From Promethearchaeota archaeon (GTDB lineage Archaea; Asgardarchaeota; Lokiarchaeia; Sigyniarchaeales; SOKP01), in NCBI GenBank assembly GCA_016839585.1, contig JAEOTZ010000075.1, forward strand, positions 1 through 40,379: a stretch of 40,379 nt of DNA. The letters are read 5' to 3'. A program made the translations under genes and the position numbers. How positions within the stretch are numbered: position 1 is the stretch's first letter; each line of letters starts with the position of its first letter. Positions 16,982-34,322 of this stretch are shown here, piece by piece. Below the pieces are notes generated by a model that saw only the letters and a program-made list of their open reading frames with translations, did not search any database and was not told the DNA's origin.

Positions 16982-17013
16982 AAATTCCTAGAAGGTTAAC
17001 CTTCTAGGAATTT
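16982..17013. repeat. Perfect 32-bp palindrome
   Basis: AAATTCCTAGAAGGTT|AACCTTCTAGGAATTT with no spacer; lies between the TPR gene and the converging microprotein cassette A. Confidence 0.9.
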
Positions 17014-17026
17014 ATTCTACTACAGA

Positions 17027-17043
17027 CAATATGGAAACGGAAA
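17027..17043. repeat. Dispersed 17-nt motif, copy 1
   Basis: CAATATGGAAACGGAAA; other copies at 19286, 26279 and 32464. Confidence 0.85.
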
Positions 17044-17085
17044 TAAGAAAATAAGTATGAAAAAATAAAAGATTAAAAATATCTT

Positions 17086-17172
17086 TTAATGAATTATATA
17101 TCTTGAATTATAAATATCAACCAAATTCCTTACCTTTATTAATTCCCGTCTCTCCATCCTTTTTCTATTCAT
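17086..17172 (-). CDS. 28-aa basic microprotein (MNRKR family, copy A)
   Basis: Hand translation MNRKRMERRELIKVRNLVDIYNSRYIIH*; homologous to 32545-32616; GAGAG plus an A-run upstream. Confidence 0.6.
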   Translation of the reverse strand: MNRKRMERRELIKVRNLVDIYNSRYIIH

Positions 17173-17199
17173 TTTTTTTTCTCTCAAATTTTTTAGTTT

Positions 17200-17257
17200 T
17201 TATAAAATGCCCTCGCTCTTTATATGAACCTTATTGGCAGTCTTGCTCTGACATTTC
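17200..17257 (-). pseudogene. 3' remnant of a zinc-ribbon microprotein paralog
   Basis: 17201-17257 matches 19331-19387 at 46/57 nt. Encodes KCQSKTANKVHIKSEGIL* versus KCQKRTTDKVYIKSEGIL*. Similarity stops abruptly at 17257. Confidence 0.8.
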
Positions 17258-17870
17258 AAGTCAAGAGTATGACCCACCATTTTTTGACCATGAACCTGCA
17301 TGGAGTGAATTTTACGTTAAAAAACCTAAATTTGATAGTGCTTATTTAGCTACTTGGTGTGCTGCCTTTGATACTTTTTTTGGTTTTTCTCTAGAACTTC
17401 ATGACCCTATGCTGAATCATAATGTCGGATTTCAATCGGAGACTCATCAAGATGCTGGTTGGCTAGAACAATATACTATGCCAGACGAGTTTGACACTTC
17501 TGCCCCAGAGAGAAGAAAAAGTTTTTGGGACTTTTTTTCTGGTGTCGGACCTGATGCATGGAAAAAAGATTACTTAGAAGCAATATATCACCATCTCAAT
17601 GTAGCTGTTTATTATTGTGCTGCTGCCATGAATTCTCTTAAAGATCATTATACTTTTTGTAATAAGAATGAAGACGCCGAGAAGACGTTAGCCCAATCAA
17701 TTGAACTTCTTGCAGCTGAATATAGTTTATCTTTTGTATTATCTTTCGTGGGAAATTGGGCTGTAATTATTATCTTAACACGATCTGCTACATCTTTAGC
17801 AAAAGGACAATCTTTAGAGAATTTCCAAGAAGTACTTTGTGTTATGAGTAGACCATTTAGAGTTGGATAA
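17258..17870 (+). pseudogene. 5'-truncated fragment of a membrane-anchored protein, probably Zn-dependent phospholipase C/P1-nuclease-like (C-terminal half)
   Basis: SAYLATWCAAFDTFFG...DAGWLEQYT...HLNVAVYYCAAAMNSL plus a C-terminal hydrophobic helix; homologous to 34323-34718. The track's N-terminus (17103-17257) is antisense read-through of other genes. Family assignment is from recalled pattern only. Confidence 0.6.
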
Positions 17871-17926
17871 TTAATTTATTTATTTTTTTTAATTTTCATA
17901 TTTTTATTAATTATTGATAGTAGTTC

Positions 17927-19102
17927 TCAAAATGACTTAAACTTTCTTAAAATATTTCTTGAATTCCTATAGCATGGATTAGATCTAATATTAAGATAAT
18001 GAAGTGACTTTAAATTTAAAATAGAACTAGGCAATGTTTCTAATTGATTATTATTTAAACTAAAAAGTTCTAGAGATTTTAGATCACCAATAGAGTTAGG
18101 AAGAGAAGATAATTGATTCTTATCTAAGAAGAGAGATTTCAGATTAATTAATCTAGCTATCGATTCAGGAATAGAAGAAAGATGATTATTACTCAAGAAT
18201 ATTGTCTCCAATGAGCTCAAATTTCCAATAGAGTCAGGAAGCCTCTCAATTTTATTATAGCTTAAATCTAATTTCTTTAATGAGATTAAATTAGATAAAT
18301 TATTTGGTAACACTGTTAATTGATTATTACTTAGGGAAAGCCTCTCTAAAGAAGTTAGTTCTCCAATGGAATTGGGAATAATTATTATTTGATTCCAACT
18401 GGCATCCAAATCTTTAAGATTTTTAAGATTACCTATCGATTTCGGCAAAGTTTTTAATTTATTTCCAAGAATTATTAATTTTTCAAGAAAGTTAATACTT
18501 CCTAAAGATTCTGGGAGTATCTCTATATTATTATGTTGTAAATATAATTCTTTAAGTGAACTAAGTTCATTAATATTTTCAGGAAGTCTTGTTATATTAG
18601 GATTATTTATTGATAAGATTTGTAAATTTTTCATATGACAAATAAAATCAGGAATTTCAGTTATGCTGTTACCCGATAAGTGGAGGGATTGAAGTGAATG
18701 CAGATTTTTTAATTTCTCGGGAAACTCTTTGAATCCTGTATCTATTAACACTAATTTTTTAAGTGATTTAAGGTTAATTATTGAATCAGGTAGTGTTTCT
18801 AATCCATTTGATCTATTACTTTTGATATATAATACTTTAAGGTAAGTTAGGTTGCCGATTGACTCTGGAAGGTGTCTAAGATTTTTAATAGCAATCAATA
18901 CAACATGGCTTTTATCAACTTGAAAAAGAGGAGAATGGAACTCAAGCAACCAATCATCCATACAAAAATCTATACTCAATATGGAGAATCGTCTGCTCTC
19001 TGCTGTCTTTAATTTTTGTTCTATATCTTCTAAAGTTTTAGCTTCTGTACTCGGTATTTGAACTCCTCTAAATTCTATTAATTGTACTTCTCGATTATCC
19101 AT
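17927..19102 (-). CDS. Leucine-rich repeat protein (copy 1)
   Basis: About 13 repeats of 23 aa (LPxSIGNLxxLxxLxLxxN), N-cap EFRGVQIP...DFCMDDW, C-cap NP. Confidence 0.92.
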   Translation of the reverse strand: MDNREVQLIEFRGVQIPSTEAKTLEDIEQKLKTAESRRFSILSIDFCMDDWLLEFHSPLFQVDKSHVVLIAIKNLRHLPESIGNLTYLKVLYIKSNRSNGLETLPDSIINLKSLKKLVLIDTGFKEFPEKLKNLHSLQSLHLSGNSITEIPDFICHMKNLQILSINNPNITRLPENINELSSLKELYLQHNNIEILPESLGSINFLEKLIILGNKLKTLPKSIGNLKNLKDLDASWNQIIIIPNSIGELTSLERLSLSNNQLTVLPNNLSNLISLKKLDLSYNKIERLPDSIGNLSSLETIFLSNNHLSSIPESIARLINLKSLFLDKNQLSSLPNSIGDLKSLELFSLNNNQLETLPSSILNLKSLHYLNIRSNPCYRNSRNILRKFKSF

Positions 19103-19240
19103 CTTCTTATGTATTAATTATATTTCCGATTTTTAAATTTATCGAGCGAAGATGCTAACTGATTTATTAAATTTACACATATAATTTTTTTAATTAATTA
19201 TTAATGATTAAGTATTAAGTTTATGGAATGAAATAGATTA

Positions 19241-19302
19241 ATTCACAGAGAAAGGATTCCCCCTCAGAACCCCTTCTTAGTGAATCAATATGGAAATGGA
19301 AA
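19241..19302 (-). repeat. Conserved hairpin + 17-nt motif, copy B
   Basis: ATTCACAGAGAAAGGATTCCCCCTCAGAACCCCTTCTTAGTGAAT (19241-19285) followed by CAATATGGAAATGGAAA (19286-19302); homologous to 32420-32480. Confidence 0.85.
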
Positions 19303-19329
19303 ATTAGTGTGGATAATAAAAAGAATCTT

Positions 19330-19467
19330 CTATAAAATCCCTTCGCTTTTTATATAAACTTTATCGGTAGTCCTTTTTTGACATTTCTTACAAATTGCAA
19401 CCGTCCTTGAAAAATCTAATTTAATGCTCTTGCCGCACTTCATACACTTTAGCTTCGGTTTGCTCAT
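19330..19467 (-). CDS. 45-aa zinc-ribbon microprotein (2x CxxC)
   Basis: Hand translation MSKPKLKCMKCGKSIKLDFSRTVAICKKCQKRTTDKVYIKSEGIL*. The paralogous remnant at 17200 keeps the same frame and stop position. Confidence 0.8.
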   Translation of the reverse strand: MSKPKLKCMKCGKSIKLDFSRTVAICKKCQKRTTDKVYIKSEGIL

Positions 19468-19502
19468 TTTTCTCTTAACTCTATATATATGAAAAAAATA
19501 TT

Positions 19503-19718
19503 TTAATAGGGAACGTTTCTAAACCCTAAAATGTTCCCATAAGCTTTGTTCTTAATATTATTCACGTTAACTAGCGCCTCATGTTGTTTAGCATGTTTCT
19601 TAAGTGATTTTTTCTTTTTAACTTGCTTTATCTCTGCTTTTTTCTCAATTTTTTCCTCTTTCGCGGGAATAATTATTAGTTCATACTCCATTTCCCGCTT
19701 TTCTAATACTTGGACCAT
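19503..19718 (-). CDS. 71-aa charged small protein (M(V/A)QV...FRN type, copy B)
   Basis: ATG preceded by AAAGGTT and an A-run; similar layout to 32708-32950. Confidence 0.7.
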   Translation of the reverse strand: MVQVLEKREMEYELIIIPAKEEKIEKKAEIKQVKKKKSLKKHAKQHEALVNVNNIKNKAYGNILGFRNVPY

Positions 19719-19800
19719 TTTTTTTTAACCTTTTTTTCTTTTTTTTGTTTTTTTTTCTTATTTTTTATTTTTTTCCTTAATTTTTAGTATGTTTGACTTC

Positions 19801-19860
19801 TATTTATAGATTCTCGCTTCGCACTTCACGTAAAGTTTATACTTCAGTATGAAGCGCAAT
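19801..19860. promoter_or_regulatory. Divergent promoter region with CTTCA/TGAAG boxes
   Basis: Minus-strand TATAAATA at about 19808-19801; CGCTTC (19815) and GAAGCG (19851) form an inverted pair; ACTTCA at 19823 and 19841; CTTCA-gta-TGAAG palindrome at 19842-19854. Confidence 0.5.
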
Positions 19861-19916
19861 GTTTAAATATGAAATGAATTTATTAATATATAATAAATAC
19901 ATGTTTGTGTTTGGTT

Positions 19917-22910
19917 ATGAGCAGCTCAAAGTCGATTATTTATCCCCCTGAAGAATTTTTAAATCCTCCTCTTGGAAAAGATCGAAATTTTGAATTAATT
20001 ATTCTTTGGATGTTAAATGAAAATAAAATGTGTCGTTGGGCAGATTTTAGGAAGTTTATTTCAGAAGGGACTCTATCAAAATATCTAAATAGACTTAAAG
20101 ATCAAGGTTTTTTAAAATATTCTTATAACAAATATGAAATTACTCCAGTAGGAAAAGACAGATTTTCTGAATTACTAACTTATCATGAAGAACCTGATTT
20201 TCAGATAAAATATCCCCCTGACATAATAAAAAACAAAAGGAATTACAAGCATATTGTACTTTGGATGTTAACTAACAATGAGTTATTAACATGGTCTGAC
20301 TTTCGTGAAGAACCACTAAAAATTAATTCCACTGCTTTATCTAAAAGTCTAAGTTCATTAAAAGATAAGGATTTTATAGAAAAAGCAGATGGTGGTTATA
20401 AGGTAACCCCATTAGGAAAATCAGAATATTTTAGAATCTTAAGATTATATGACTTAGATCGCCAATCAATTTTAGAAGAAGAAAGTAAAAGAATTGAAGA
20501 GATTACTGAAAAAACGAGCAAATTTTTTAATAATTATAAAATTGAGGATGATGAATTAAAATATCGGTTTCTTAATCATATTCTAAAGCTTAATTACTCA
20601 AAAGTCGAAAGTATGTTAAAAGATGAAGAGGATTTTAACAAAATTCTATTATTTCTCTCGATAAATCATCCAAATCAATATCCTGATTACTTATCCCCTG
20701 ATGAGTTTTCTTTAAAATATAATATTGAAATTACGACACTAAACTATTATATCCAAGAAATTGTAGACAATCAATTATTTCAAATTAAATTTTTTACTTT
20801 GAAGGATGAGCAGGGAGGATTATATTACTTTCAGAAAAATGAGGCAATTGAGAAAATCTTGAATGCAATTGTGGAGAAATACATTATCAAATTCACTTAT
20901 CTTAATAAGTTCAAGGAAAGTGCTTTGCAAACTGATCATATAATAGATATAGAATTGTTGTTAGAGAATATATTGAATGATGTATGTGGTAATTTATTTA
21001 ATAATAATTTAAAGCCAGCATTAAAAACGTTCTTACCAGAATATATTAAATATTTAGCCTATAAAATTGAAACGGAGAAAAAATTAACAGATAATGAAGC
21101 TAAGTTGGAAGGTTTTGTATGGCAGAATATTTTTGAAGAATTTCAAACATTTGAGCCTGTTAGTAGACAAGTGGGAAAAGGCGAAGAGGTGCAAACTTAT
21201 TATAAAATGGACTGCAAGATATTTGATGCATTAGATATCTTCTATATCACTAAATTGAATTTAATTAATACAAGTGAGTTTAAAGAGAGTTTTGATCTTA
21301 ATAAATTAGATATTTTCGATAAAATTGAAAATTCGTTATATAAAAGGAAGATCTCAGAAGCTAAAAATCTATTAGAGAGTAGTAATGTTGACTTTAATTC
21401 AATTGAGGGTCTTATTTTAAAGGATTTAGTTTATACAGTAGATAATAATTTCGATGATTCGATTAAAACAACAACAGAGATTATTAAAAAATTTTCTAAT
21501 AACTATATTGGATATTTATTGCAATCAATTACTTACTTTCTAACTGATGATTATGAAGATGCATTTGATGTTATTGAAAAAGGCTTAGAAAAAACCCCAA
21601 GTTTTCTACTAAAGGTTCAAAAAGCTCAGATATTAATTAAAATGCAAGTTGCTGAGAAAGCTATAAAAATTATCGAGGAATTAATTTCTGATTACCCCAA
21701 TAGCATTCCATTATTAAGGACAAAACTTTTGGTTTATCTAACTGATTGTAAGATTCTTGAAAGAGCTTCTGAGGATCCTTTGGAAATTATTGATTCTGCT
21801 ATAAAACTGAAGCCAAAAGATAAAGAACTCATAATTTTAAAAAGTATATACTATTGTATCATTCATAACTACAAAGAAGCAAAAAGAGTTCTAACAGACG
21901 AAATTATTTTTAATTATATTAAAAAGAATCCCAGAATTGACACTGCTGGTTTATTCATTTTAGCATTTTCTTATCTTGCTCGTGGGAAGTTTGAAAAAGC
22001 TTTAGGGATTGTAAAAAATATTTTAGATCAATATCCAAATCATCCAATCTCATATTTCACCAAAGCTCTAGCACTGGGTTATAATTTAATTTATAAATTT
22101 AAGCTTCATGAACCAAATGTTGATACTTTCATTGGGCTAATTGAAAGAGCAATTTCTCTTGAATCAGTAAATTATAATAAAACTAAATTTCTTCAATTAC
22201 AAGCATGTATTTTACAAGGATTCGAACAATTTGATGATGCAATTGAAACTATTGATCGTGCTATTGATTTAATTCCAAATCAATCTGCTCAATATATGAT
22301 GAAAGTGGTCTTTCTAATGGGTGCTAAAAGACAAAATGAGGCATTAGAAGCAATTGATGAATATTTAGATAAGGCTCCATTATTAAGGAAGAGGCTCCTA
22401 CGGACAAAAACATATATTTATCACGGTCAAAAAAAATACCAAGAGGCTTATGAGATTATCGATGAATTAACTAAACTTTACCCAGATAACATTTCTTTTG
22501 TCAATAATAAAGCTGTTGTTCTGGCTTATCTAAATAGAAAAGAAGAAGCGATAGAAACTGCTGAATATCTTTTAAGTCTTAATCCAAAATTAGGAAATTC
22601 CTATGATTCATATGGTGAAATTCTAATGACTTTTAAAGAATATGAGGATGCAATAAAGAAATTTGAAAAAGCTGTAGAACTTGAACCAACAGGATGGTTT
22701 GCATATTGGTCATATATAAAAATGGGAAAATGTTATCAAGAGCTCGGAAAGTATGAGTCCGCACTGGAAAATTATGAAAAAGGTAAAAAAATAGCAGAAA
22801 AAATGTTTCCTACAGATACAAAATTTTTTGAATTTGATGTCGATAAATACATTTCAGAAATCAGATCATTAATAGAAAAATCAAAAGAAAAGTACAAAAG
22901 TGAATTATAA
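19917..22910 (+). CDS. Large tandem winged-HTH + TPR protein (putative transcriptional regulator)
   Basis: Two internal repeats (YPP...RN(F/Y)..I(I/V)LWML..N....W.DFR.....LSK.L..LKD..F......Y.(I/V)TP.GK) resembling wHTH domains; C-terminal TPR array. ATG at 19917 (track start is TTG at 19905). Confidence 0.8.
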   Translation: MSSSKSIIYPPEEFLNPPLGKDRNFELIILWMLNENKMCRWADFRKFISEGTLSKYLNRLKDQGFLKYSYNKYEITPVGKDRFSELLTYHEEPDFQIKYPPDIIKNKRNYKHIVLWMLTNNELLTWSDFREEPLKINSTALSKSLSSLKDKDFIEKADGGYKVTPLGKSEYFRILRLYDLDRQSILEEESKRIEEITEKTSKFFNNYKIEDDELKYRFLNHILKLNYSKVESMLKDEEDFNKILLFLSINHPNQYPDYLSPDEFSLKYNIEITTLNYYIQEIVDNQLFQIKFFTLKDEQGGLYYFQKNEAIEKILNAIVEKYIIKFTYLNKFKESALQTDHIIDIELLLENILNDVCGNLFNNNLKPALKTFLPEYIKYLAYKIETEKKLTDNEAKLEGFVWQNIFEEFQTFEPVSRQVGKGEEVQTYYKMDCKIFDALDIFYITKLNLINTSEFKESFDLNKLDIFDKIENSLYKRKISEAKNLLESSNVDFNSIEGLILKDLVYTVDNNFDDSIKTTTEIIKKFSNNYIGYLLQSITYFLTDDYEDAFDVIEKGLEKTPSFLLKVQKAQILIKMQVAEKAIKIIEELISDYPNSIPLLRTKLLVYLTDCKILERASEDPLEIIDSAIKLKPKDKELIILKSIYYCIIHNYKEAKRVLTDEIIFNYIKKNPRIDTAGLFILAFSYLARGKFEKALGIVKNILDQYPNHPISYFTKALALGYNLIYKFKLHEPNVDTFIGLIERAISLESVNYNKTKFLQLQACILQGFEQFDDAIETIDRAIDLIPNQSAQYMMKVVFLMGAKRQNEALEAIDEYLDKAPLLRKRLLRTKTYIYHGQKKYQEAYEIIDELTKLYPDNISFVNNKAVVLAYLNRKEEAIETAEYLLSLNPKLGNSYDSYGEILMTFKEYEDAIKKFEKAVELEPTGWFAYWSYIKMGKCYQELGKYESALENYEKGKKIAEKMFPTDTKFFEFDVDKYISEIRSLIEKSKEKYKSEL

Positions 22911-22922
22911 AATGTGGTCTTG

Positions 22923-23585
22923 ATGGATTACAAATTTATAAAAACACTTGAATTTAATTTTAATTTTGGAACACTAATAGCAGTTGATTTCAGCTCTTGT
23001 TGTGAAGAATCTAACTTGTTTAATATTAATGAAGAGATAATTAATGAAATTAAGGATAGTGTTAAAAATCAAGGAATTCCTGATTTAATATGGTTTAAAG
23101 GAATAGGGGACTCTATAAAATATTCGAAGTCTAAACAAATTATCGAAATGATTAAGGAGTCTTATCCATATCAAAAAATTGGTGTTTATTTAAATTGTGC
23201 GATCTTTCAAGATGAAATTATCAGAGAAAATTTCTACGAATGTGATTTAGTAGCAATTAATCTGAATAGTATTGATCCTTTGAATTTTTCAAAAATTAAT
23301 AAATGTCCTGAATCTACAAAATCTAAAGAGGTCTTAGAGGGAATTAAAGAATTTAGTCATAAATTCAAAGGAAAATTAGGGATCTACACTATGTTTTTGA
23401 GCGGTATTAATGATAATATAAAAAATATAGAAGATTTAAGGGAATTCTTATTAGAAGTTATGCCAGATTATTATTCTATTAGTAATTATACTCTAGATGG
23501 TTTTAAACCCGTTTCAGATGAATTTAAAAAATTGCTTGAAGAAATACTTAAGGATATTCCATTTAAAGTTATTTATATGTTCTAA
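22923..23585 (+). CDS. Degenerate radical-SAM-fold protein lacking the CxxxCxxC motif
   Basis: PDLIWFKGIGDS, DLVAINLNSID..NFSKIN, ILEG-like VLEGIKEF, TMFLSGINDN resemble archaeal radical-SAM (COG0731-like) barrels, but there is no cluster-binding triad. Directly follows the wHTH-TPR gene. Confidence 0.6.
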   Translation: MDYKFIKTLEFNFNFGTLIAVDFSSCCEESNLFNINEEIINEIKDSVKNQGIPDLIWFKGIGDSIKYSKSKQIIEMIKESYPYQKIGVYLNCAIFQDEIIRENFYECDLVAINLNSIDPLNFSKINKCPESTKSKEVLEGIKEFSHKFKGKLGIYTMFLSGINDNIKNIEDLREFLLEVMPDYYSISNYTLDGFKPVSDEFKKLLEEILKDIPFKVIYMF

Positions 23586-23631
23586 ATAATGAATTAAATA
23601 AATAAATACTGTTAAAAAATTAAAAAAAAAA

Positions 23632-24951
23632 TTATTCTATTGTCTCTACTATCTCTGAAAGTTCAGAAATTTCTATTAATTCCTCATCTTCTTTTATTTC
23701 TTCAATTTCTTTCCCATATTCAAGATATCGTATTTTTGTAAGAAGCCATATCAACAATGGAAAAATTAATCCTAGTGAAGCGCAAATATAGAATAAATAT
23801 ACAACTCCAAGAAGTTCCGCTAATGGTCCTGCGATAAGTGCTCCAATTGGAGCAATCGCCATTGATATCATATGATCTATTGACATAATCCTTCCAATTT
23901 TATCTTTGGAGACTTTTGTTTGTAAAATTTCTAAATAAAGTGCTACTGTTATGGGAAGAACTATAGCACCAGGAATATATCCGACAATCATAAATAAAAA
24001 ATTACCCTTTGGCGCAAAGATAAAGGCGAATTGCCCAGCAAAAAACAAAGATGCCCCAATTATATTTATTTTAATTTTATGTTTCCATTCTTTCTTAATT
24101 GACATAATTAAAGCACCAATCATGTTTGCAACTTGAAATGAAAAGATTAAAATCGCAAGATCAAATGCAGTTCCATTGTGTATAAATTTTACAAAGTAGG
24201 GCAATAAAACATTGAAAGGTCTATTTACAAAATTCCAAATCATTGCAAATGCTATCATCGCAAATAATCCAGGAATAGCTTTAATTACCGATATTCCCTC
24301 CTTGAAATCTTTTGTAAATGAATTTTTTGTCCCCTCTTCTCTAATACTTCTTATTGATGGAATTTTTATTAACAAAAGTGGTATTAAGGCAATTATGAAT
24401 GTAGATATATCAAGTAGCATTATTTTTTCTATTGAAAAAAATTCATATAGAACTGCAGCAACCATTGGACCTATACTAAAAACTAAACTTGAAAATAAGA
24501 AATTTACGCCATTGATCCTGCTTAATTTTTCTTTTGGAACCATGGCAGGAATAAGAGCAGATACAGCAGGTAATTGAAATGCAAAAAGTGCGGCGCGGAA
24601 TGTATTTATGCCTAAAACAAACCAAACGTTTGGGATATCTAAAAGAAAGAAACAAAACAAAATAAACGTTACAACAGCCTGGAGAGAATCTGAAATTGCT
24701 ATTATGGCTTTTCGACTCCATCGATCTGAAATTACTCCAGAAATGGGAGTAATTATTATTTGTGGTATAAACATCAAAAATACCGATATTGAAAGAATTA
24801 CCACACTTCCTGTTTCTACTGTAAGCCACCATGTTATGACAAAGCCAACTATCATCGAGCCTAATAATGAAAATTGCTGACCAAATAAAAAATATAAATA
24901 ATGCCTAAACGTTTTTTTATTGGCTATGTCATCCATCTGTTTTTCCTCCAA
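23632..24951 (-). CDS. MFS transporter, MefA/DHA3-like efflux family
   Basis: GQQFSLLGS, GVISDRWSRK, AFQLPAVSALIP.MVPKEKLSRING, GRIMS; 12 TM pattern. Confidence 0.9.
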   Translation of the reverse strand: MEEKQMDDIANKKTFRHYLYFLFGQQFSLLGSMIVGFVITWWLTVETGSVVILSISVFLMFIPQIIITPISGVISDRWSRKAIIAISDSLQAVVTFILFCFFLLDIPNVWFVLGINTFRAALFAFQLPAVSALIPAMVPKEKLSRINGVNFLFSSLVFSIGPMVAAVLYEFFSIEKIMLLDISTFIIALIPLLLIKIPSIRSIREEGTKNSFTKDFKEGISVIKAIPGLFAMIAFAMIWNFVNRPFNVLLPYFVKFIHNGTAFDLAILIFSFQVANMIGALIMSIKKEWKHKIKINIIGASLFFAGQFAFIFAPKGNFLFMIVGYIPGAIVLPITVALYLEILQTKVSKDKIGRIMSIDHMISMAIAPIGALIAGPLAELLGVVYLFYICASLGLIFPLLIWLLTKIRYLEYGKEIEEIKEDEELIEISELSEIVETIE

Positions 24952-25158
24952 TTTACTTTATTTAGTGATACTCTTAATACCATAAATAGTTCATTAGACA
25001 GAAGTTCAGATGAAGTTTAAACCAAATTTGAACTTACACACTAAATTGAAAAAAGAATAATATCAAGAGAAACAAAATTTATACAAATAAAAAAATGAGA
25101 TTTAGATAATCTATAAATATTTAATTAGCACAAAGTAAAATTGAGGTCGACAAAATAA

Positions 25159-25566
25159 TTGACAGTGATTGAATTACCTAAAGAAATTAATGGTGCGATT
25201 CTTGCCTCAATAGAGGGTGGACCAATAGCAACCGCTCTACCTAGTGATAAAGATAAAGAGAAAATTTCAGCAATGATGGCTGCACTATGGTCTGTAGCTA
25301 AGATATCATATTCTAAAATAAATAAAGGAGACTTCGACTATGTTTATATTAAAGGAACACAAGGCAACTTATTAGTATTTTCGATAAATATAAATACCGT
25401 TTTCGTTGTTACTACACCTCTTGATATTAATCTAGGATTTATATACTTAGAATGTAGAAGAGTGTGTAAAAAGATAATCTCACTTTTAGGTAAAAGGTAT
25501 TTGAAAAGACCAATTAAGTTAAAAATCAAGGATAGGGAGATAATCTCTTTAACCGAAGGATTTTGA
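25159..25566 (+). CDS. Roadblock/LC7 domain protein
   Basis: GAILASIEGGPIATALP...KISAMMAAL...KGDFDYVYIKGTQG...NLGFI; GAGGT upstream of the TTG start. Confidence 0.88.
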   Translation: MTVIELPKEINGAILASIEGGPIATALPSDKDKEKISAMMAALWSVAKISYSKINKGDFDYVYIKGTQGNLLVFSININTVFVVTTPLDINLGFIYLECRRVCKKIISLLGKRYLKRPIKLKIKDREIISLTEGF

Positions 25567-25944
25567 CTTTTTTAATATTGCATATTATTATAGTTCAAAA
25601 ATTTACCATTTTCCTTTATATAATATAATAACAAAGAATATAGTCAAACAAGGATAATAATAAATACTTGTTTTTTACATACATTTTTTCTTACGAAAGG
25701 AGGTTATTTCAAATTAATATAATTAGAAAAAGAAGATGGTTGGAGATAAATGCAAAAATGCAAAATATGAGTCCAAAAGAATATTACAAAGAAATGTTTA
25801 AAAAGCTCCTCCATGAAATTAATGATAATATAGAAGCATCTGAAAAAATAAGCAAAATTTGAATTTGATAGCTTTATGTATGATACTGACTTAATCTTCT
25901 CTTTTAGTTTCTTATCTGATCAGTAATATTTTAAATTAGTTGAT

Positions 25945-26238
25945 TTATTTAAGGTCCTCAATTAATTCAAGAAATTCTGCATATGGAATAGCTGTCCAAC
26001 TCTCTGCAAAGGTGGCTCCTGCATTACGGGAAAGTAATGAAACCTTTGCTGCTTCTTGTTCATTTTTTACTTCGAAAATATCAAGAAAATCATAAGGTCC
26101 TAATATGGCATAATGTGCAATCCATTTAATATTCGGAACTTTCTCTCTAACTAATCTTAACCACTTTTCACCCTGTTCTTTCCTGTTTTCCACTAGATCA
26201 GGGTTTTGAAGTTTAGTTGCTAGTATATATATTGGCAT
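25945..26238 (-). CDS. GYD domain protein
   Basis: MPIYIL..., YAILGPYDFLDIFE, AAKVSL; 97 aa. Confidence 0.85.
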   Translation of the reverse strand: MPIYILATKLQNPDLVENRKEQGEKWLRLVREKVPNIKWIAHYAILGPYDFLDIFEVKNEQEAAKVSLLSRNAGATFAESWTAIPYAEFLELIEDLK

Positions 26239-26278
26239 AGTATATATATGGGGTAGCTTACACTTTAAACCTTACTTT

Positions 26279-26295
26279 CAATATGGAAATGGAAA
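26279..26295. repeat. Dispersed 17-nt motif, solo copy
   Basis: CAATATGGAAATGGAAA, identical to 19286-19302, but without an adjacent hairpin. Confidence 0.85.
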
Positions 26296-26409
26296 AATAA
26301 ATCGTGAATTGATAATTATTTTATTTTTTAAATGAACAATAATAATTGAGTAAAAATTTTTTGAGATTATTCATATAAATTCAAGAATTATGGAGAAAGA
26401 ATTATTAAA

Positions 26410-26862
26410 ATGAAAGATGATAATATATTTTATGGTGTTTGTGGTGTCTACTGTGGTCAGTGCCATACTAGGGAAAAAGTTCATCTATTAGCTATGGAAT
26501 TAAAAAAACTAATTATTGATGACTATGATTGGGTTGCAAATGTAGTTGATGATATCGATTATACTAATTTTTTGAAAGGATTAGAATGGTTTAGTAAGCA
26601 ATATTGCCCAACCTGCGTCAAAATTTCTGATCCTTGGTGTGAAGTAAGAAAATGTGAAAAAATAATTAATAAAGAATTAAAAAGCTGTCTTTTATGTGAA
26701 GAATTCCTAAATTGTTCAAGAACAGAATATCAACGAGATAGATATCCTTTTGTTATAGATCATTATCATCGTGTAAAACAGATTGGTTTTGAAAAGCATT
26801 TAGAAGAAGAAGAAAAACGAGCTAAAGAAGGAGTTAGATTAATAGATATTAGAAAATACTAG
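26410..26862 (+). CDS. DUF3795-like Cys-rich protein
   Basis: CGVYCGQC, CPTC, CEVRKC, SCLLCEEF.NC pattern. Confidence 0.8.
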   Translation: MKDDNIFYGVCGVYCGQCHTREKVHLLAMELKKLIIDDYDWVANVVDDIDYTNFLKGLEWFSKQYCPTCVKISDPWCEVRKCEKIINKELKSCLLCEEFLNCSRTEYQRDRYPFVIDHYHRVKQIGFEKHLEEEEKRAKEGVRLIDIRKY

Positions 26863-26863
26863 T

Positions 26864-27652
26864 TTATTCTTCGAATAAGTTTATATTGAACTCAAATAGT
26901 TTATCTTGAATTTTATTCTTTATTTCTTTAGATATATTATTTAAGATATCCTCTGGCACATATTCCAAATATTCATATAACTCGTTTTGAATTATAGGAC
27001 CTACATTTTTCATAAATTCCTCAACAATTTCTTGCTTCTTTAAATAAATTTCTTTATACTTCTTAAGATGAGTTGTATTAAATATTTTGAGCCAATTTTT
27101 TCCCTTATTTTTCAATAACGTGATAGTCCTTTTAGAATTTGTAGTATTAAAATTACTAAATTCGTATTCATATTTAATTAGTATCCCCTCGAAATAGTTG
27201 ATTATTTGAGTTTTCTCTTTTGAATTTAAATCCGTATTGGAATTAAGAAAGACTATAATCATGTATTTTTCATATGCAAAATATATCTGTCCTTTAATAT
27301 TGGAACCATGAATTTCAAGGTGAGATAAGTTTTTTATGTTTGTTTGCTCTGCAAATGTTCTAAATGAACTAAAATACATGGAAATTAAATCAATTTCCAA
27401 AAGTTTTTTATCATCTTCGATGAGATAAGATTTAATTGGACCATAATTAGTTCTGTCTTTAGAGTCATAGTCAATAACCATTATCGTATTTCCATATTGA
27501 TCTGAGACAATAATACCAATAACTGGTGGTATATTATTGAAATTGTATGTGCGATATGCAATTTCAGTTAATCTATTTTCAATAAGGTTATTATATTTTT
27601 GATATTCGCTTTTAGATGTCAAATAAGAATTATTTTGAATAGCATTTTTCAT
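26864..27652 (-). CDS. Hypothetical protein, possible longin/roadblock-like domain
   Basis: IGIIVSDQYGNTI...DLISMYFSSFRTFA...LEIHG...MIIVFLN pattern of profilin-fold domains (inference). Confidence 0.6.
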   Translation of the reverse strand: MKNAIQNNSYLTSKSEYQKYNNLIENRLTEIAYRTYNFNNIPPVIGIIVSDQYGNTIMVIDYDSKDRTNYGPIKSYLIEDDKKLLEIDLISMYFSSFRTFAEQTNIKNLSHLEIHGSNIKGQIYFAYEKYMIIVFLNSNTDLNSKEKTQIINYFEGILIKYEYEFSNFNTTNSKRTITLLKNKGKNWLKIFNTTHLKKYKEIYLKKQEIVEEFMKNVGPIIQNELYEYLEYVPEDILNNISKEIKNKIQDKLFEFNINLFEE

Positions 27653-27940
27653 TGGTAATTCCTTAAAGACTTTACTATAAATTTAGCTTTTTCCTAGGCA
27701 TTAAGCATAAACCAAAAAACCAAATATTTCTATAAAGATAATAGAGTGTGTCAGTTTTTAGTAATTAATTTTTCCATCCGACAAAAACCCATATGGCAAT
27801 AGATCTTAAAAATTATTTATATATACAATAATGGACATTCATGAAAACAATTATAAACATAATCAAAAAATTTATTAAATTACTGAAGTTCTTTTTTTTA
27901 GTTTTTTATTAAATTAAAATAAAAAAAATATAGTAGTCAT

Positions 27941-28543
27941 ATGAAAATTAATATTAACTTAAAATGGCCGATTAGCTGTTATACCGGTATATTAGTTATA
28001 GGTCTCTATTGTGTGTTTACATTCACATCCCTAGCTTTATTTCCACCTCCTTTTAGTGCTTTTGATAACTGGTTAAGCGATCTTGGAAATTCGAGCTATA
28101 ATCCGAATGGAGCAGTTCTTTATAATCTTGGTTGTATCTTAACTGGAATAATGTTATTCCCTTTCTTTATTGGATTGTCTAAATGGTATAAAGATGAAAT
28201 TTGGCATAAAGTACTTGTAATAATTATTCAAGTTGTAGGATCTTTCTCTGGGTTTGCATTAATAATGATTGGTGTCTATTCTGAAGACTTTCCATCACCA
28301 CATATATTTTGGTCAGAGGTATTTTTTGACGTTAATCTTATTGTTCTGGTCCTAGCATCATTAGCATTATTTTTTCATCCAGATTTCATTAAATGGATTG
28401 CTTTATATGGAATCCTAGTTGCTATAATAAATTTATTATTTGTATTCTTCGTAGGTACTCCAATTTTAGAGTGGTTTACTGTATTTACTGCGCTTGGCTA
28501 TGTGGGATTAATTGTATACAATATGTACATAAAATTTCGTTAA
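27941..28543 (+). CDS. DUF998-like membrane protein
   Basis: NWLSDLG, (F/Y)N.G, IGVYSED..H, C-terminal LEW; about 5 TM. Confidence 0.75.
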   Translation: MKININLKWPISCYTGILVIGLYCVFTFTSLALFPPPFSAFDNWLSDLGNSSYNPNGAVLYNLGCILTGIMLFPFFIGLSKWYKDEIWHKVLVIIIQVVGSFSGFALIMIGVYSEDFPSPHIFWSEVFFDVNLIVLVLASLALFFHPDFIKWIALYGILVAIINLLFVFFVGTPILEWFTVFTALGYVGLIVYNMYIKFR

Positions 28544-28856
28544 CAAGGTAAATTAAAATTTTGAATAAAAAATAATAGAACTTTCGAATCCTCCAATTTT
28601 TTTTTCTTTAAATTAATAGAAAATTATGACTGCGAACATTCATATTTACAATCTAATACATTATATAAATCCATATATTCTTTGAAAATTCTTAAATTAT
28701 TAAGTGTACATATTAATCTAATCCATTACATTTTAGATATTGCTCAGATAAATAGATAATGAACTGGAAAAAGCCCAGTGATACAATAAATTAAAGAAAA
28801 ATTAAATTAATTCTGAAACATTCTAAAGTAATTAAATAAATAAAAAGGTGATTTAA

Positions 28857-29681
28857 ATCCCAATTTTCAATTATGATGATATTGAAATTAATTATGTAAA
28901 GAAAGGTAAAGGAGAGCCGCTTGTATTACTTCAAGGCTGGGCAACAACTCTTGATGGATGGGCTTTTCAAATCCCATTTTTTAGACGAAATATGATGGTT
29001 GTAGCATTGGATAATAGGGGAATCGGGGGTAGTTCCAGACCAAATTACCCCTACACGATGGATATGTTTTTGGATGAAACCAAAGCATTGCTTGACTCCC
29101 TAAGTATACAACAGAAGATCCATCTGTGCGGCATCAGCATGGGGGGGATGATTGCTCAGAATTTTGCCTTAAAATACCCCGATATGGTTAAAACCTTAAC
29201 ATTACTTGCTACTACTCCATATTTAAGAGAACAGTTTGCTCAACCAATAAGGGAGGAATATAGGGCAATTATGCAGGATTTGGATTTAGAAGAAGGATTT
29301 AAAAGAAAACTTGATTTAATGTTTTCTAAATCGTTTATTCGAAGGGTAAATGAGGAGGAAGTGCTTCGTAATGCGCTTTTCGATACATTGATGATAAAAA
29401 GTGCGAGCAATGCGACCTGGCAAGACCTAGAAAATCGGGGGGCTGCGTTAATGAAACATGATACGCGCGGCAACTTGCAGAAAATTACCCAACCTACGCT
29501 AATAATACATGGTACGGAGGATAAATTTATTCCTGTAGAAAATGCTTATCTTCTGGATGAAAAAATTCCTAACTCTAAATTAATCACCCTTGAAGGTTTC
29601 GGACACGGAAGCATATTAATTGAGGATGCCGAAAGGGTAAACAATCTAATTTGGAATTTCATACAAGAGAATTTGGATTGA
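28857..29681 (+). CDS. Alpha/beta-fold hydrolase (start extended to ATC at 28857)
   Basis: DNRGIGGS, GISMGG nucleophile elbow, IHGTED, GH. The in-frame upstream extension IPIFNYDDIEINYVKKGKGEPLVLLQGWATTLDGWAFQIPFF supplies the expected N-terminal strands. Confidence 0.9.
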   Translation: MPIFNYDDIEINYVKKGKGEPLVLLQGWATTLDGWAFQIPFFRRNMMVVALDNRGIGGSSRPNYPYTMDMFLDETKALLDSLSIQQKIHLCGISMGGMIAQNFALKYPDMVKTLTLLATTPYLREQFAQPIREEYRAIMQDLDLEEGFKRKLDLMFSKSFIRRVNEEEVLRNALFDTLMIKSASNATWQDLENRGAALMKHDTRGNLQKITQPTLIIHGTEDKFIPVENAYLLDEKIPNSKLITLEGFGHGSILIEDAERVNNLIWNFIQENLD

Positions 29682-29831
29682 CAAATTAGTAATATTTTCA
29701 CTTTCCATCTCATTCACTAACAGATGAAAAATTTTTTTTCTTTTCATTTCTTCTCTTTTTCTTTAAATATACTGAATTGAAAATAATAATGATATAAATG
29801 ACATAAATTGCATATTTATATTTGAAATAAT

Positions 29832-29975
29832 ATGACCGAAAGTAGAAATTTTGATTATGAAATTCCATGGAAATGGCATAATGAACAGTTAAAAGAGAGT
29901 ATTAGAAAAAATAAGCACCTCGAACGAATACGGAACAATTTTAAAAAGAAGAGAATTTATAAATCTAAAAGGTGA
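29832..29975 (+). CDS. Possible 47-aa basic small protein or gene remnant
   Basis: MTESRNFDYEIPWKWHNEQLKESIRKNKHLERIRNNFKKKRIYKSKR*; TATA-like TTTATA shortly upstream; no homolog in the window. Confidence 0.3.
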   Translation: MTESRNFDYEIPWKWHNEQLKESIRKNKHLERIRNNFKKKRIYKSKR

Positions 29976-30030
29976 GAAAAACTACAAAAGAATTGAAGTC
30001 TCCTTGAAAGTTTATTTTCCAGGAGTGTCT

Positions 30031-32208
30031 TCAATCATTAATTAATTTCGTTTTAATCTCATTAAGTAATTCAATAGCTTCTTTATAATCTTGATTATAA
30101 AATAAGCATTTCTCACATGCTTTAAAAGCTTTTTCATATTGTTTTAAATCTAGATATACTCTTGTTAATAAATACCAAGTTAGAGGCTGTTTTGGATTGT
30201 ATGAAATTGCTCTTTTAAAGGTCTCAATTGCTATTTCAAGATTTCCTTTTCGATGATATGCTATCCCTATTTGATTTAAGGCATCTCCATAGATCGGATT
30301 GACTTCTAATGCTTTATTACCCATTTCAATTGCTTTATCATGGGCTCCTACTTCGTTATATAAAAAGGCAAGTAATGCCCATCCTTCTTTATATGTCGGT
30401 TTAACCTCTACTGTCTTATTAGCAGCTTCAAAAGCTTTATCTAAATCGTGCTTTCTGAAATAACAGATGCCAAGATAATACCAAATATCTTCGTGGTTAA
30501 TAGGCACATTAAATGCTTGCCTGAAGACCTCACCTAATGTAATAGCAACTGATGGTTTATGAATAATTTTTAGAGTTTGTTTAAATGTCTCAATGGCATT
30601 ATCATAATCTTCAGATTCAAAATAAAATACTCCAAGATTCATTAAATACAGTTTAGAATCTTCTTCAATTTCAAGAGCTTTCTTTATTGTATTGATTGCT
30701 TTCTCATAATCTTTCATTGATTTATAGATAACAGCCAGATTATTCCAAGCTAGTGCATTTTGAGGGTTTCTATGCAATATTTTTTGACATTTTTCTATCG
30801 CTTTTTCATATCTTCCTTTTCTCTGGTCATGTCTAGCAGAAAGCAAATCCATATCTGGTTGGGATATCCCTCCCATTATTCTTGAAAAGCCACCCAATAA
30901 AAGAACCATAGTCATTACTACAATAATCAGAGCTACAAAACCAGAATATTTTGCTAATATTAGGATGAAAAATCCTGCACTTAAAAACATTATAGGGATA
31001 TTTGATACAGCTAGAATTAAACGAAAAGTTAAAGGAGAGAATGTCTCATTTGAATTTAATTTATTATAATTTCTAATGGTGATAAAAGTAAGGGTCATAA
31101 ATAATATTATTAATATAGTGTTAATAGGGGTTAATATAAAGTAAATTTCATTTATAATCCCAAGAAACAGATTAATTACCACAACTGAGAGATAAGGTAA
31201 GAAAAAAGAAAGAGTCGGTATAAAAAAAGGAAAAAATGGATTTTTTAAGCGTTCAACTATATCTTTTCTGGCTTTTTCTGATTTAATTACCAGATTTATT
31301 CCTAAAGAGATTAAAAGAGAAAATATAAACACTGAAATTAATGAAAAGAAGCTTTTTAATCTGGAATCTGCCCAAAATCTGTCATTAAAAGAGAAAAAAA
31401 ATAATGAAATATCCTGAAAAAAGATACTAATCATTACAATTAGATATCCTATAACCATTAGCTTTAGTTTAGGATACATTTTTGGTTTTATTGGATAATG
31501 TTTTTTAACAATATTATTGAAATAAATTGATTCTTTAATGCCCATAATAATAAAAGCTAGAGTAAAAACTGCAAATAATGGAATAAGAATTAAAATCCAA
31601 ATATTTAAGAAATCAAATAGAATTGAATTATAAAAAACACTTCCAATAATGAGAGTGAGGTTAAGCCCTATAAATATATCATGCAAATGAACTGGGAACC
31701 TATTCCCTCTACCTCGCTTATCTTCAATAGCGACTTTAACATCAATTATAGTATCGGGACTATGGACTTTCGTAATGTTATTAATTGAACTTTTTTTTAT
31801 CGAATTAAGAAAAGAATCTGTTATCCTAAGCCAATTAATTTCCGAATTTTCAACCTCTATTTTCACACTTTTTAACAAAGAGAGTGATTTTAGCTTACAA
31901 TTATTAATTGTTATGTTTTCAGATTTTTTTAATGATAGAACATTGATTTCACAATTTTCGAATGAAATATTGGAACATTTATTTAAATTAAAAGATCTAA
32001 GTAAACAATTTTCCAGCTTTATAAACAAATTACAATTCAATATTGAAATCTCGTGATCTTTAGGAAAGTAGTCAGATTTATCAAAAATATAGGGATCACC
32101 TTTGATTCCTGAACCTTTTACATTAAACTGTTTTATAAGCTGTTCGAGTTCGGCTTCATTATATTTGATTGATTTAATTTCACTCAGTTTTTTTATATTC
32201 AAACTCAT
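30031..32208 (-). CDS. Beta-solenoid + multi-TM + TPR protein
   Basis: GSGIKGDPYI followed by beta-helix-like repeats (SNISFENC, ENITINNC), about 8 TM helices, then about 7 TPRs. Confidence 0.8.
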   Translation of the reverse strand: MSLNIKKLSEIKSIKYNEAELEQLIKQFNVKGSGIKGDPYIFDKSDYFPKDHEISILNCNLFIKLENCLLRSFNLNKCSNISFENCEINVLSLKKSENITINNCKLKSLSLLKSVKIEVENSEINWLRITDSFLNSIKKSSINNITKVHSPDTIIDVKVAIEDKRGRGNRFPVHLHDIFIGLNLTLIIGSVFYNSILFDFLNIWILILIPLFAVFTLAFIIMGIKESIYFNNIVKKHYPIKPKMYPKLKLMVIGYLIVMISIFFQDISLFFFSFNDRFWADSRLKSFFSLISVFIFSLLISLGINLVIKSEKARKDIVERLKNPFFPFFIPTLSFFLPYLSVVVINLFLGIINEIYFILTPINTILIILFMTLTFITIRNYNKLNSNETFSPLTFRLILAVSNIPIMFLSAGFFILILAKYSGFVALIIVVMTMVLLLGGFSRIMGGISQPDMDLLSARHDQRKGRYEKAIEKCQKILHRNPQNALAWNNLAVIYKSMKDYEKAINTIKKALEIEEDSKLYLMNLGVFYFESEDYDNAIETFKQTLKIIHKPSVAITLGEVFRQAFNVPINHEDIWYYLGICYFRKHDLDKAFEAANKTVEVKPTYKEGWALLAFLYNEVGAHDKAIEMGNKALEVNPIYGDALNQIGIAYHRKGNLEIAIETFKRAISYNPKQPLTWYLLTRVYLDLKQYEKAFKACEKCLFYNQDYKEAIELLNEIKTKLIND

Positions 32209-32419
32209 TTTGTTTCGCCTTCTTTCGGATCATTGTAATAATTTTTCCTATAATAATCTGATTATAATTTAATAAAAATTTACCAAAGTCTATTTGTATC
32301 TGAATTTTTTATGTTTATAATACAAATATATCAGTATTCCAAATAATTTTTTCTATACTTATTTATCAAAATTTTGAGCCAATATAAAAAATATAAAAAA
32401 TATGGAGCCAACAAAAATA

Positions 32420-32480
32420 ATCCACATAAAAGGAGTCCCCTCAGAACCCCTTTTTATGTGAATCATTATGGAAATGGAAA
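32420..32480 (-). repeat. Conserved hairpin + 17-nt motif, copy C
   Basis: ATCCACATAAAAGGAGTCCCCTCAGAACCCCTTTTTATGTGAAT (32420-32463) followed by CATTATGGAAATGGAAA (32464-32480). Confidence 0.85.
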
Positions 32481-32544
32481 AATTAGTTGATATAAAAATA
32501 AGCTTAATTTTAAAAAATTAAAAAATAAAAAAATTTATTTAATT

Positions 32545-32616
32545 CTAAATCGGAATATTATACCCGGCAACATTCCTTATCTTTATTATTCTTTTCTCAA
32601 TTCTTTTTCTATTCAT
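32545..32616 (-). CDS. 23-aa basic microprotein (MNRKR family, copy C)
   Basis: MNRKRIEKRIIKIRNVAGYNIPI*; AGAGGT ribosome-binding site 7 nt upstream; paralog at 17086-17172. Confidence 0.65.
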   Translation of the reverse strand: MNRKRIEKRIIKIRNVAGYNIPI

Positions 32617-32707
32617 TTTTTTTACCTCTTTTTTATTTTTTTTTTGAGTTTTTTTCCTTTTTTTTTGATTATTTTGTAAGCTTGATTTAAAATTTAAAAA
32701 AAAAAAT

Positions 32708-32950
32708 TTAGAAAACCCCGTAATTCCTAAAAGTGAACTGACTATTCACTAATTTTATGGGTCGCAATTCTTCAACGTATCTGGCATTCAATTCTGCCTT
32801 CTTAATTAACTTTAACAATTCTTTCTTAACCGATTTTTGCTCAACTTTTCTTTCTTCTCGAATTACCTCTTCTTCTCTGAGGTCTTCTAATTTAATTTCA
32901 TATTCTACGCACTCGGGCGCAGACACACAATCCAGGTTTACTTGAGCCAT
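32708..32950 (-). CDS. 80-aa charged small protein (M(V/A)QV...FRN type, copy C)
   Basis: ATG at 32950 with GTGA upstream as RBS; MAQV...EYEI...FRNYGVF. Confidence 0.7.
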   Translation of the reverse strand: MAQVNLDCVSAPECVEYEIKLEDLREEEVIREERKVEQKSVKKELLKLIKKAELNARYVEELRPIKLVNSQFTFRNYGVF

Positions 32951-33220
32951 TTTTTTTATCACTTCAATTCTTATTTGTTCTAATTAATTTAAAGAAATAA
33001 TTTTATATATAGTTTTTAACATCGAACTTTTGTTGTAGTTCGTACTATTGATGAAGTTTGAATAAAAGTATAAGTTTTTAAGTATTAAAAATCTAAGAGC
33101 TTAAACATAAATCTGAAAGCTCATTAATGATTATTAGAAATTAATCCTCACAGGCACCCAATAAATTTAAAAATAAGGAAATTTATTAATATATCATACA
33201 AAAAGAAGATATATTTGAAG

Positions 33221-34246: not shown

Positions 34247-34322
34247 TCAAATATTTTAATATTTAGCCATATTATTTTTCAAAAGAAAGAAAATAAAGAA
34301 AAAAAGGATTTTATTTAATATT

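Follow-up and report, generated by a model that had tools for sequence, protein, structure and literature searches.

What does a family of very small genes do when operons of the family end in the same 17-nucleotide (nt) motif and a hairpin? The question is raised by contig JAEOTZ010000075.1 of a Promethearchaeota archaeon (Lokiarchaeia; assembly GCA_016839585.1), of which a stretch of 40,379 nt (positions 1 to 40,379) was analyzed as a whole and is referred to here as the window. A first-pass annotation of the window had described a thrice-repeated, mix-and-match microprotein cassette at three minus-strand places, called A, B, and C below. Its open reading frames (ORFs), motifs, and hairpins were all located again at these places; it mentioned neither the regulator gene divergent to operon B nor an antisense relation between the motif and the start of a transporter gene. 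We propose that the operons are lineage-specific and have a dual output of protein and RNA: a regulator-driven mRNA would encode the microproteins, and its 3' end probably represses translation of a DppA-like binding protein in trans. Genomes, loci, and contigs carry labels beginning with G (G000, the source genome), L, and C, respectively; MVQ denotes the small charged protein family, PEP the short basic peptide family, and Zn the four-cysteine (C4) zinc finger.

The strict motif (17 nt) is expected 0.013 times in the 3.45-Mb genome under a fifth-order Markov model and was seen five times, four of them on this contig. The fifth copy lies on contig C25, where it coincides, on the opposite strand, with the start of the putative target gene: the motif is the reverse complement of the Shine-Dalgarno (SD)/start region of a PF00496 gene (G000 C25:32006). 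This gene encodes a conserved family-5 solute-binding protein (560 to 620 amino acids [aa], starting MEMEKK) whose closest solved relatives are DppA/HbpA-type proteins, and it heads what appears by layout and sequence to be a Dpp/Opp-type ATP-binding cassette (ABC) operon with two permease-like and two ATPase-like ORFs. A family-wide motif search returned many matches outside the cassettes; about half of the 40 that were examined are the first codons, on the opposite strand, of this family-5 binding-protein gene.

The tails of operons B and C pair with the SD, the start codon, and the first five codons of this target. Among 2848 ORF starts, the DppA-like gene was the best partner of both seed B (-33.9 kcal/mol) and seed C (-29.7 kcal/mol); the best of the same 2848 starts reached -22.2 ± 1.6 kcal/mol with shuffled seeds. 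The net gain on cofolding with the target was about -20 to -24 kcal/mol (B, about -23). Of the genome's 2366 post-stop regions, only 13 (0.55%) were complementary over 16 nt to a gene start located on a different contig. Without selection for the motif, pairing at or below -22 kcal/mol was found in 20 of 49 cassette 3' regions and in 0 of 89 control 3' regions, each control being scored against at most two targets.

Element and target also change together. Across 24 genomes, cognate pairing beat noncognate pairing (-2.4 vs. 0.1 ± 0.5; permutation P of about 5e-5), and the advantage was still present (P of 0.001) after G013, G015, and G139 had been dropped. The target of G013 and G015 begins with MERKT, having lost two codons, and has a different leader; the element in these genomes is altered to a 16-nt perfect complement of it. 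Further matched element/target variants were found in G139, G099, G146, and G110. At core A positions, 15 of 17 changes, not all of which are independent, were A to G, keeping a G-U pair, and T to C was seen once; the A-to-G bias is strand specific and runs against the AT trend.

Motif and strong hairpin (-24 to -27 kcal/mol per 70 nt) occur together in this genome at A, B, and C only; an energy of -20 kcal/mol is reached by 0.2% of random 70-mers. Family-wide, the motif is conserved at a fixed distance before the hairpin, whose sequence varies with its pairs compensated (four of seven pairs changed on both sides; 0 of 500 shuffles). The A-type hairpin closes B or C operons in other genomes.

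The same seed is present in an unlinked stand-alone RNA gene (G000 C20:4993-5063; L388) with a 12-bp closing stem, its own TATA box, and a U tail. The DppA-antisense seed lies in the open loop of this RNA, which has a second block matching codons 7 to 10. Homologs (L220, L222, L226, L227, L233, L236, L244, L245, and L389) were identified. The RNA gene precedes a PA0069-like radical SAM gene and in many cases directly follows a tRNA. Neither the window nor the stand-alone RNA yielded anything near the cutoff in Rfam; readings as a CRISPR repeat, an origin recognition box (ORB), a selenocysteine insertion sequence (SECIS), or a C/D box were dropped, there being no array and no Rfam support.

Several further occurrences were recorded. 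A stem-closed paralog with a different loop (G000 C20:4796) lies about 200 nt upstream of the stand-alone RNA. At L218, L240, L246/L392, and L214, other small genes (62 and 92 aa) are followed by the same seed and by a hairpin of another type, so that the antisense element may have a third context. A possible second target is a ferredoxin-thioredoxin reductase beta-like gene with a MEMET start (G000:C61:105392; L211); seed A pairs slightly better with this start than with that of the DppA-like gene. Family-5 binding-protein genes adjoin a zinc-finger gene or sit between cassettes at L010 (G007:C1), L015 (G028:C16), and L060 (G029:C5).

The pathway that we propose is as follows. The tandem winged-helix-turn-helix (wHTH)/tetratricopeptide repeat (TPR) protein, responding to a signal that it would sense, would set micro-operon transcription via an operator array, and transcription would run on through the seed. 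The mRNA would encode one to four small, charged, cytoplasmic proteins. Protected by the terminal hairpin, its 3' untranslated region (UTR) would act in trans as an antisense RNA in the cell, either intact or after processing: an exposed U/C-rich toehold would pair with codons 1 to 5 of the DppA-like mRNA, and pairing would extend over the AUG and the SD by opening the hairpin base. Translation of the ABC importer's first gene would be blocked, and less of the importer's first component would be made.

The regulator at B has 997 aa from its ATG (1001 aa from an upstream TTG at 19905); its paralogs range from about 620 to 1000 aa. It is confined to the Lokiarchaeia family of the source genome, being present in 56 of 68 of its genomes (1 to 10 copies each) vs. 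0 of 232 other genomes of the phylum. A divergent micro-gene lies within 1.1 kb at 52 of 74 regulator loci (at B, 199 nt separate the genes). The family layout is a regulator facing an operator array and a TATA box, followed by MVQ, optional peptide(s), optional zinc finger(s), the motif, and the hairpin; an SD-like element is also conserved in the intergenic region. Among close relatives, regulator residues 1 to 200 exist as discrete alleles (47 to 62% identity between types, 91 to 93% within); the TPR part is 76 to 90% identical, and the flanking genes are 85 to 97% identical. The operator and the winged-helix allele vary together across genome backgrounds (partial Mantel r, 0.62), a pattern that MVQ lacks (r, -0.10); MVQ divergence follows the genome background, not the TPR part specifically (partial r, 0.15; P, 0.17). 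We infer from the layout and the allele covariation that the operator array is where the regulator binds and that the promoter is under its control. A genome-wide operator scan was too unspecific to name regulon targets.

Other arrangements around the regulator were also seen. An allelic block of about 700 bp (window 19917-20516 plus 19810-19860), with its boundary at the domain end, is swapped jointly between close relatives. A radical-SAM-like protein without the CxxxCxxC motif (window 22923-23585) is encoded nearly always directly downstream of the B-type regulator. In G013 and G015 (L007/L061, L008/L062, and L011), a 325-aa winged-helix protein replaces MVQ behind the same operator and is followed by a zinc finger and two seed-plus-hairpin copies. 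One regulator subgroup (L072, L074, L113 to L115, L126, L152, and L153) faces MVQ genes interleaved with Ras/Rab-like small GTPase genes.

How many operons the window holds can be read from the close relatives (G097, L177, and L178), which have a single B operon in the order MVQ, Zn, A-type peptide, motif, and hairpin. Their operon DNA matches window positions 19975-19328 and then skips to 17256-17026. Because this one operon aligns across the intervening insertion to A, we take A to be the distal half, or tail, of operon B and its 28-aa peptide to be the predicted original third gene. The parts seen by the first-pass annotation are real, but by this alignment they make up two paralogous operons, not three, B being split by a leucine-rich repeat (LRR)-bearing insertion of about 2 kb; a fourth, relic motif is also present. 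The insertion carries a second seed and hairpin, an LRR gene, a phospholipase-C-like fragment, and a piece of another zinc-finger allele, and the seed and hairpin of B may have arrived with it. The inferred gene order of small protein, Zn, and MNRKR peptide holds for the nearest relatives, but the commonest multigene order in the family is MVQ>PEP>Zn>Zn; MVQ alone, MVQ>PEP, MVQ>Zn>PEP, and PEP-first variants also exist.

Operon C has no adjacent divergent regulator here; the corresponding spot in a relative holds an 830-aa regulator, and the ortholog of this displaced C-type regulator likely sits on contig C42 (70% identity and similar neighbors). GAAGT repeats lie upstream of it (G000:C42:33900-34420), together with a divergent 58-aa ORF that is AbrB-like by eye. 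The features of the window are listed in Table 1.

Table 1. Positions of the operon parts, regulator, predicted control elements, and insertion in the window. SD, Shine-Dalgarno; LRR, leucine-rich repeat; HMM, hidden Markov model; dN/dS, ratio of nonsynonymous to synonymous substitution rates.
Feature	Position	Strand	Remarks
Regulator: two tandem winged-helix domains (about aa 1-200) and long TPR solenoid	19917-22910	plus	Pfam HTH_45/TPR matches
Operon B operator array, GAAGT/ACTTC-like half-sites	19810-19860	minus	Conserved across about 35 promoters; predicted binding site
Operon B TATA box	19801-19809	minus	Conserved 60-91 nt upstream of MVQ start, 20 loci
Operon B MVQ microprotein B1, 71 aa	19718-19503	minus	Charged; no signal-like stretch; pooled dN/dS 0.21
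Operon B C4 zinc finger, 45 aa, CxxC-x14-CxxC	19467-19330	minus	dN/dS 0.12
Operon B antisense seed	19279-19303	minus	25-nt complement, one bulge, to SD, start codon, and first codons of DppA-like gene
Operon B strict motif	19302-19286	minus	
Operon B 3' hairpin	19237-19289	minus	Fold z -3.2; base partly sequesters SD-pairing half of seed
Insertion between B and A, about 2 kb	17257-19236	both	LRR gene and gene fragment; not in closest relatives
Inserted LRR gene	19102-17927	minus	
Inserted 5'-truncated zinc-dependent-phospholipase-C-like gene fragment	about 17409-17870	plus	
A zinc-finger 3' remnant, second allele	17256-17200	minus	88% identical to allele of relative G032
A basic peptide, 28 aa, Ile-rich strand, PEP family	17172-17086	minus	dN/dS 0.12 vs. 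L177 ortholog
A antisense seed	17027-17047	minus	One A-to-G change, G-U pair kept
A strict motif	17043-17027	minus	
A 3' hairpin, 14-bp palindrome	16982-17013	minus	Fold z -5.0; followed by U-rich tail
Relic fourth motif, hairpin deleted	26295-26279	minus	Fold z 0.0; decayed hairpin still behind motif in relatives
Operon C operator half-sites and TATA (33012-33004)	33004-33060	minus	
Operon C MVQ-family microprotein C1, 80 aa	32950-32708	minus	HMM E 1.6e-16; pooled dN/dS 0.52
Operon C PEP-family peptide C2, 23 aa	32616-32545	minus	Near-identical peptide in relative L179
Operon C antisense seed	32457-32482	minus	Same target gene as B
Operon C strict motif	32480-32464	minus	
Operon C 3' hairpin	32416-32467	minus	Fold z -3.7

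A paralogous, inverted LRR and phospholipase-C-like pair lies at 33215-34871, upstream of operon C, so that the duplicated pair spans window positions 17103-19102 and 33215-34871. The second phospholipase-C-like fragment is fused in frame to a transcription factor B (TFB)-like zinc-ribbon start. Intact homologs in relatives are 400 aa long, look secreted, and also adjoin LRR genes (L204 to L206); such pairs resemble archaeal enzyme/immunity pairs. The contig end (window 1-2251) carries a tandem duplication of a peptidase-like gene (spacing of about 1206 nt; about 73% identical).

The micro-ORFs are coding, as they are under purifying selection: the pooled dN/dS of the three families is 0.09 to 0.52, and that of a neighboring control gene is 0.22. 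MVQ occurs in 71 of 134 genomes of the same Lokiarchaeia family vs. 0 of 26 from other families of the class, and the zinc finger occurs in 23 of 36 genomes of the same genus. Homologs in those 71 genomes keep the frame and the broad order. The module is a fixed chromosomal unit of one Lokiarchaeia family. The earlier proposal of a coregulated microprotein operon family is supported by the homologs, the selection, and the conserved operator, TATA box, and SD, and the homology and dN/dS check that it had called for gave preserved frames and nonneutral ratios.

Its statement that no described system matches also holds: in profile searches of family databases, MVQ, PEP, and the zinc finger matched no described family above the cutoff, and PADLOC matched no defense system to the module parts. 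All MVQ homologs are small stand-alone proteins (86 clusters in a search of 1.8 billion proteins), and an ESM Atlas search with MVQ returned nothing but unnamed matches below 0.9. The predicted MVQ model (predicted local distance difference test [pLDDT] score, 58) has a low-confidence helical C-terminal half and is of too low a quality for a fold search. Profile comparison of PEP with MVQ gave no homology, though both have an Ile-rich strand. The microproteins would most likely act as partners of the regulator or of other transcription proteins, or as their feedback modulators.

A reading that starts from the regulator leads to peptide signaling. In Firmicutes, RRNPP peptides are imported via family-5 binding-protein (Dpp/Opp-class) importers. 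Here, PEP or MVQ could similarly be exported (e.g., by a MefA-like major facilitator superfamily [MFS] protein), reimported by Dpp/Opp, and bound by the TPR part, with the antisense RNA as negative feedback. Such a loop would extend rather than exclude the trans repression proposed above. It would accord with a helix-turn-helix (HTH)-plus-TPR regulator directly opposite small ORFs, an MFS gene after many C-type cassettes, an antisense target in the importer class used by RRNPP peptides, and several paralogs per genome with swapped DNA-binding alleles. We nevertheless regard it as unlikely: the micro-products carry a net positive charge and lack any hydrophobic stretch resembling a signal (their longest apolar run has a median of 4 residues, and the best mean Kyte-Doolittle score over 8 residues is about 1.4), MVQ divergence is not tied to the TPR part, and the peptide is optional and sometimes replaced.

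The published RRNPP criteria are a propeptide of 10 to 100 aa, an export signal, a receptor of 250 to 500 aa with TPRs, and adjacent genes (PMC10075063). The module is like RRNPP systems (Rgg/SHP, PrgX/PrgQ, and PlcR/PapR) in its HTH-plus-TPR gene adjacent and divergent to small ORFs and in its diversified paralogs, and it agrees with these criteria in microprotein length (23 to 80 aa in the window; family medians of 26, 45, and 78 aa), receptor TPRs, and gene adjacency at B (not at C). An export signal (judged by a hydropathy proxy, not SignalP) or SHP-like hydrophobic region was absent, and the receptors are too large. Because two of the five criteria speak against membership, it was rejected, and the module is not filed under RRNPP; tandem winged helices, charged and nonsecreted-looking products, zinc fingers, and the antisense tail are further differences. 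An independent archaeal circuit, in which the wHTH/TPR protein would sense its own or an imported peptide and switch on the operon while the antisense RNA closes the importer, is similarly doubtful. If true, an Asgard lineage would have a full feedback loop whose DNA-binding/operator alleles can be swapped.

A number of observations weigh against trans repression by the operon's 3' end. The compared genomes are related, so that the P values overstate independence. Seed A pairs with the same target at -26.6 to -27.1 kcal/mol and ranks only 4 of 2848, and the whole-alignment wobble count is not clean (G-U, 21; U-G, 8; C-A, 23). G111 (99% complete) and G019 (92% complete) keep MEME-type seeds, and only MERKT-type targets were found in them; their cognate ranks are 42 to 44 of 45, though binding-protein genes are often at contig ends. 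The seed is missing from many cassettes, among them all four of genus g18, and the antisense RNA is therefore not an obligatory part of the module. Beyond G000, the cognate advantage of the stand-alone RNA is small, and covariation would also be expected if the element had been copied repeatedly from the target gene. The putative ligand of the binding protein may be a peptide, nickel, or heme-like. As for control of the operon, regulator and micro-operon are sometimes apart (operon C here, L177, and L179), and the operator/winged-helix covariation is ambiguous because the two parts adjoin each other and cotransfer alone can produce it.

Some of these points would be accounted for if the motif were not an active RNA, being a copied piece of gene start or a shared double-stranded DNA site, and the hairpin were a terminator or 3' stabilizer. 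Besides the two counterexample genomes and the seedless cassettes, the AT-rich, low-complexity sequence and the U-rich tail behind the hairpin are in keeping with this explanation. It sits poorly with a motif that is conserved throughout the family at a set distance ahead of a hairpin with compensated pairs, with the strand-specific A-to-G bias against the AT trend, with the multibase changes that match unlinked targets, and with an unlinked RNA gene that has the seed in its open loop and is complementary to the target in two separate blocks. We judge it improbable.

The same conserved point is where homology breaks. Hairpin types are swapped at the motif: unrelated hairpins follow identical upstream DNA (G097), and the same hairpin follows unrelated upstream DNA. 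Because homology breakpoints cluster at the motif, the module has a mix-and-match look, and this description by the first-pass annotation remains apt, as gene order varies as well. Its suggestion of a nonautonomous mobile unit found no support, as the position of the module opposite the regulator is fixed. A recombination site (attC-like) or such a unit, shuffling micro-genes and downstream cargo, would explain the switches of homology, the tandem motif copies, and the variable downstream genes. It is very unlikely: the three motif-plus-hairpin copies in the genome are all at these operons and not dispersed, synteny is fixed in relatives, and the target explains the motif sequence. A conserved anchor in a variable region would give the same breakpoints by ordinary recombination or gene conversion, and we read the breakpoints in this way rather than as mobility.

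The zinc finger was compared with RpoP (Rpo12). All 18 members tested matched RpoP (best E, 6e-7; 17.9 bits vs. a cutoff of 89), which also gave the top two PDB sequence matches; the likeness is limited to the first knuckle. A fold search returned nothing at an E value below 0.001. That the zinc fingers are RpoP paralogs, replacing or competing with the RNA polymerase subunit in an operon that modifies the transcription machinery, is highly improbable and was largely rejected, since, against the breadth of these matches and the four-cysteine site with its RpoP-like first knuckle, the score is far under the cutoff, the second-knuckle CPxCG and the basic C-terminal motif/strand are absent, profile comparison with the host's own canonical RpoP (C23) gave 23% probability and was misaligned, and the predicted model has a treble-clef-like helix after the second knuckle.

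We conclude that the module is real, conserved, and undescribed in the literature searched, where neither a paper on it nor a description of base-pairing mRNA regulators or of the regulator family in Asgard archaea was found, and that it combines known kinds of parts. Among its parts are three microprotein families that lack annotation, as well as a transcription factor and its predicted operator, whose alleles are exchanged together. C(P)xCG zinc-finger microproteins are known in haloarchaea, e.g., Brz with Brb. The module shares with these a small zinc finger and a small basic protein, probably cotranscribed, as putative regulators (cf. PMC12949519) but has no sequence membership above the cutoff and belongs to another lineage with another architecture.

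On the RNA side, no sequence homology to GcvB, AbcR, 3'-UTR-derived small RNAs (sRNAs), or sRNA162 was found, and there was no Rfam match. In Methanosarcina mazei, sRNA162 is a trans-acting RNA whose single-stranded region masks a ribosome-binding site (PMC3510493). Masking of this kind in an archaeon is what we propose here, but sRNA162 is an independent gene that targets a transcription factor cistron, without a microprotein operon or a TPR regulator. OppZ, CpxQ, and FarS are 3'-UTR-derived bacterial sRNAs, of which OppZ acts on its own opp operon (PMC9438474). The likeness lies in a conserved seed that immediately precedes the terminal hairpin of a predicted mRNA and in the proposed dual output of protein and RNA, and the sequence hallmarks of such sRNAs are present: an element before the terminal hairpin, a complement to an unlinked initiation region, and compensatory or wobble-kept pairing (G111 and G019 excepted). 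Unlike that of OppZ, the putative target here is an unlinked operon. If the proposal is right, this is an archaeal 3'-UTR-derived regulator and a named RNA-target pair with natural compensatory variants.

The nearest functional parallel is nutrient uptake control. The genes oppA and dppA are targets of GcvB. GcvB (enterobacteria) and AbcR1/2 (alphaproteobacteria) are sRNAs that repress amino acid/peptide ABC transporter mRNAs (PMC9438474, PMC4152367), and amino acids and peptides sustain the lokiarchaeon MK-D1 (Prometheoarchaeum), which has been brought into culture (PMC7015854). Were the proposal correct, peptide uptake would be under a GcvB-like hub in a group whose cultured member feeds on peptides. 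Like GcvB and AbcR, the element would be antisense near the translation start of an ABC substrate-binding-protein mRNA; unlike them, it is archaeal, its seed lies in the 3' UTR of a microprotein operon and in several copies, and its pairing is near perfect over 20 to 35 nt with one gene family.

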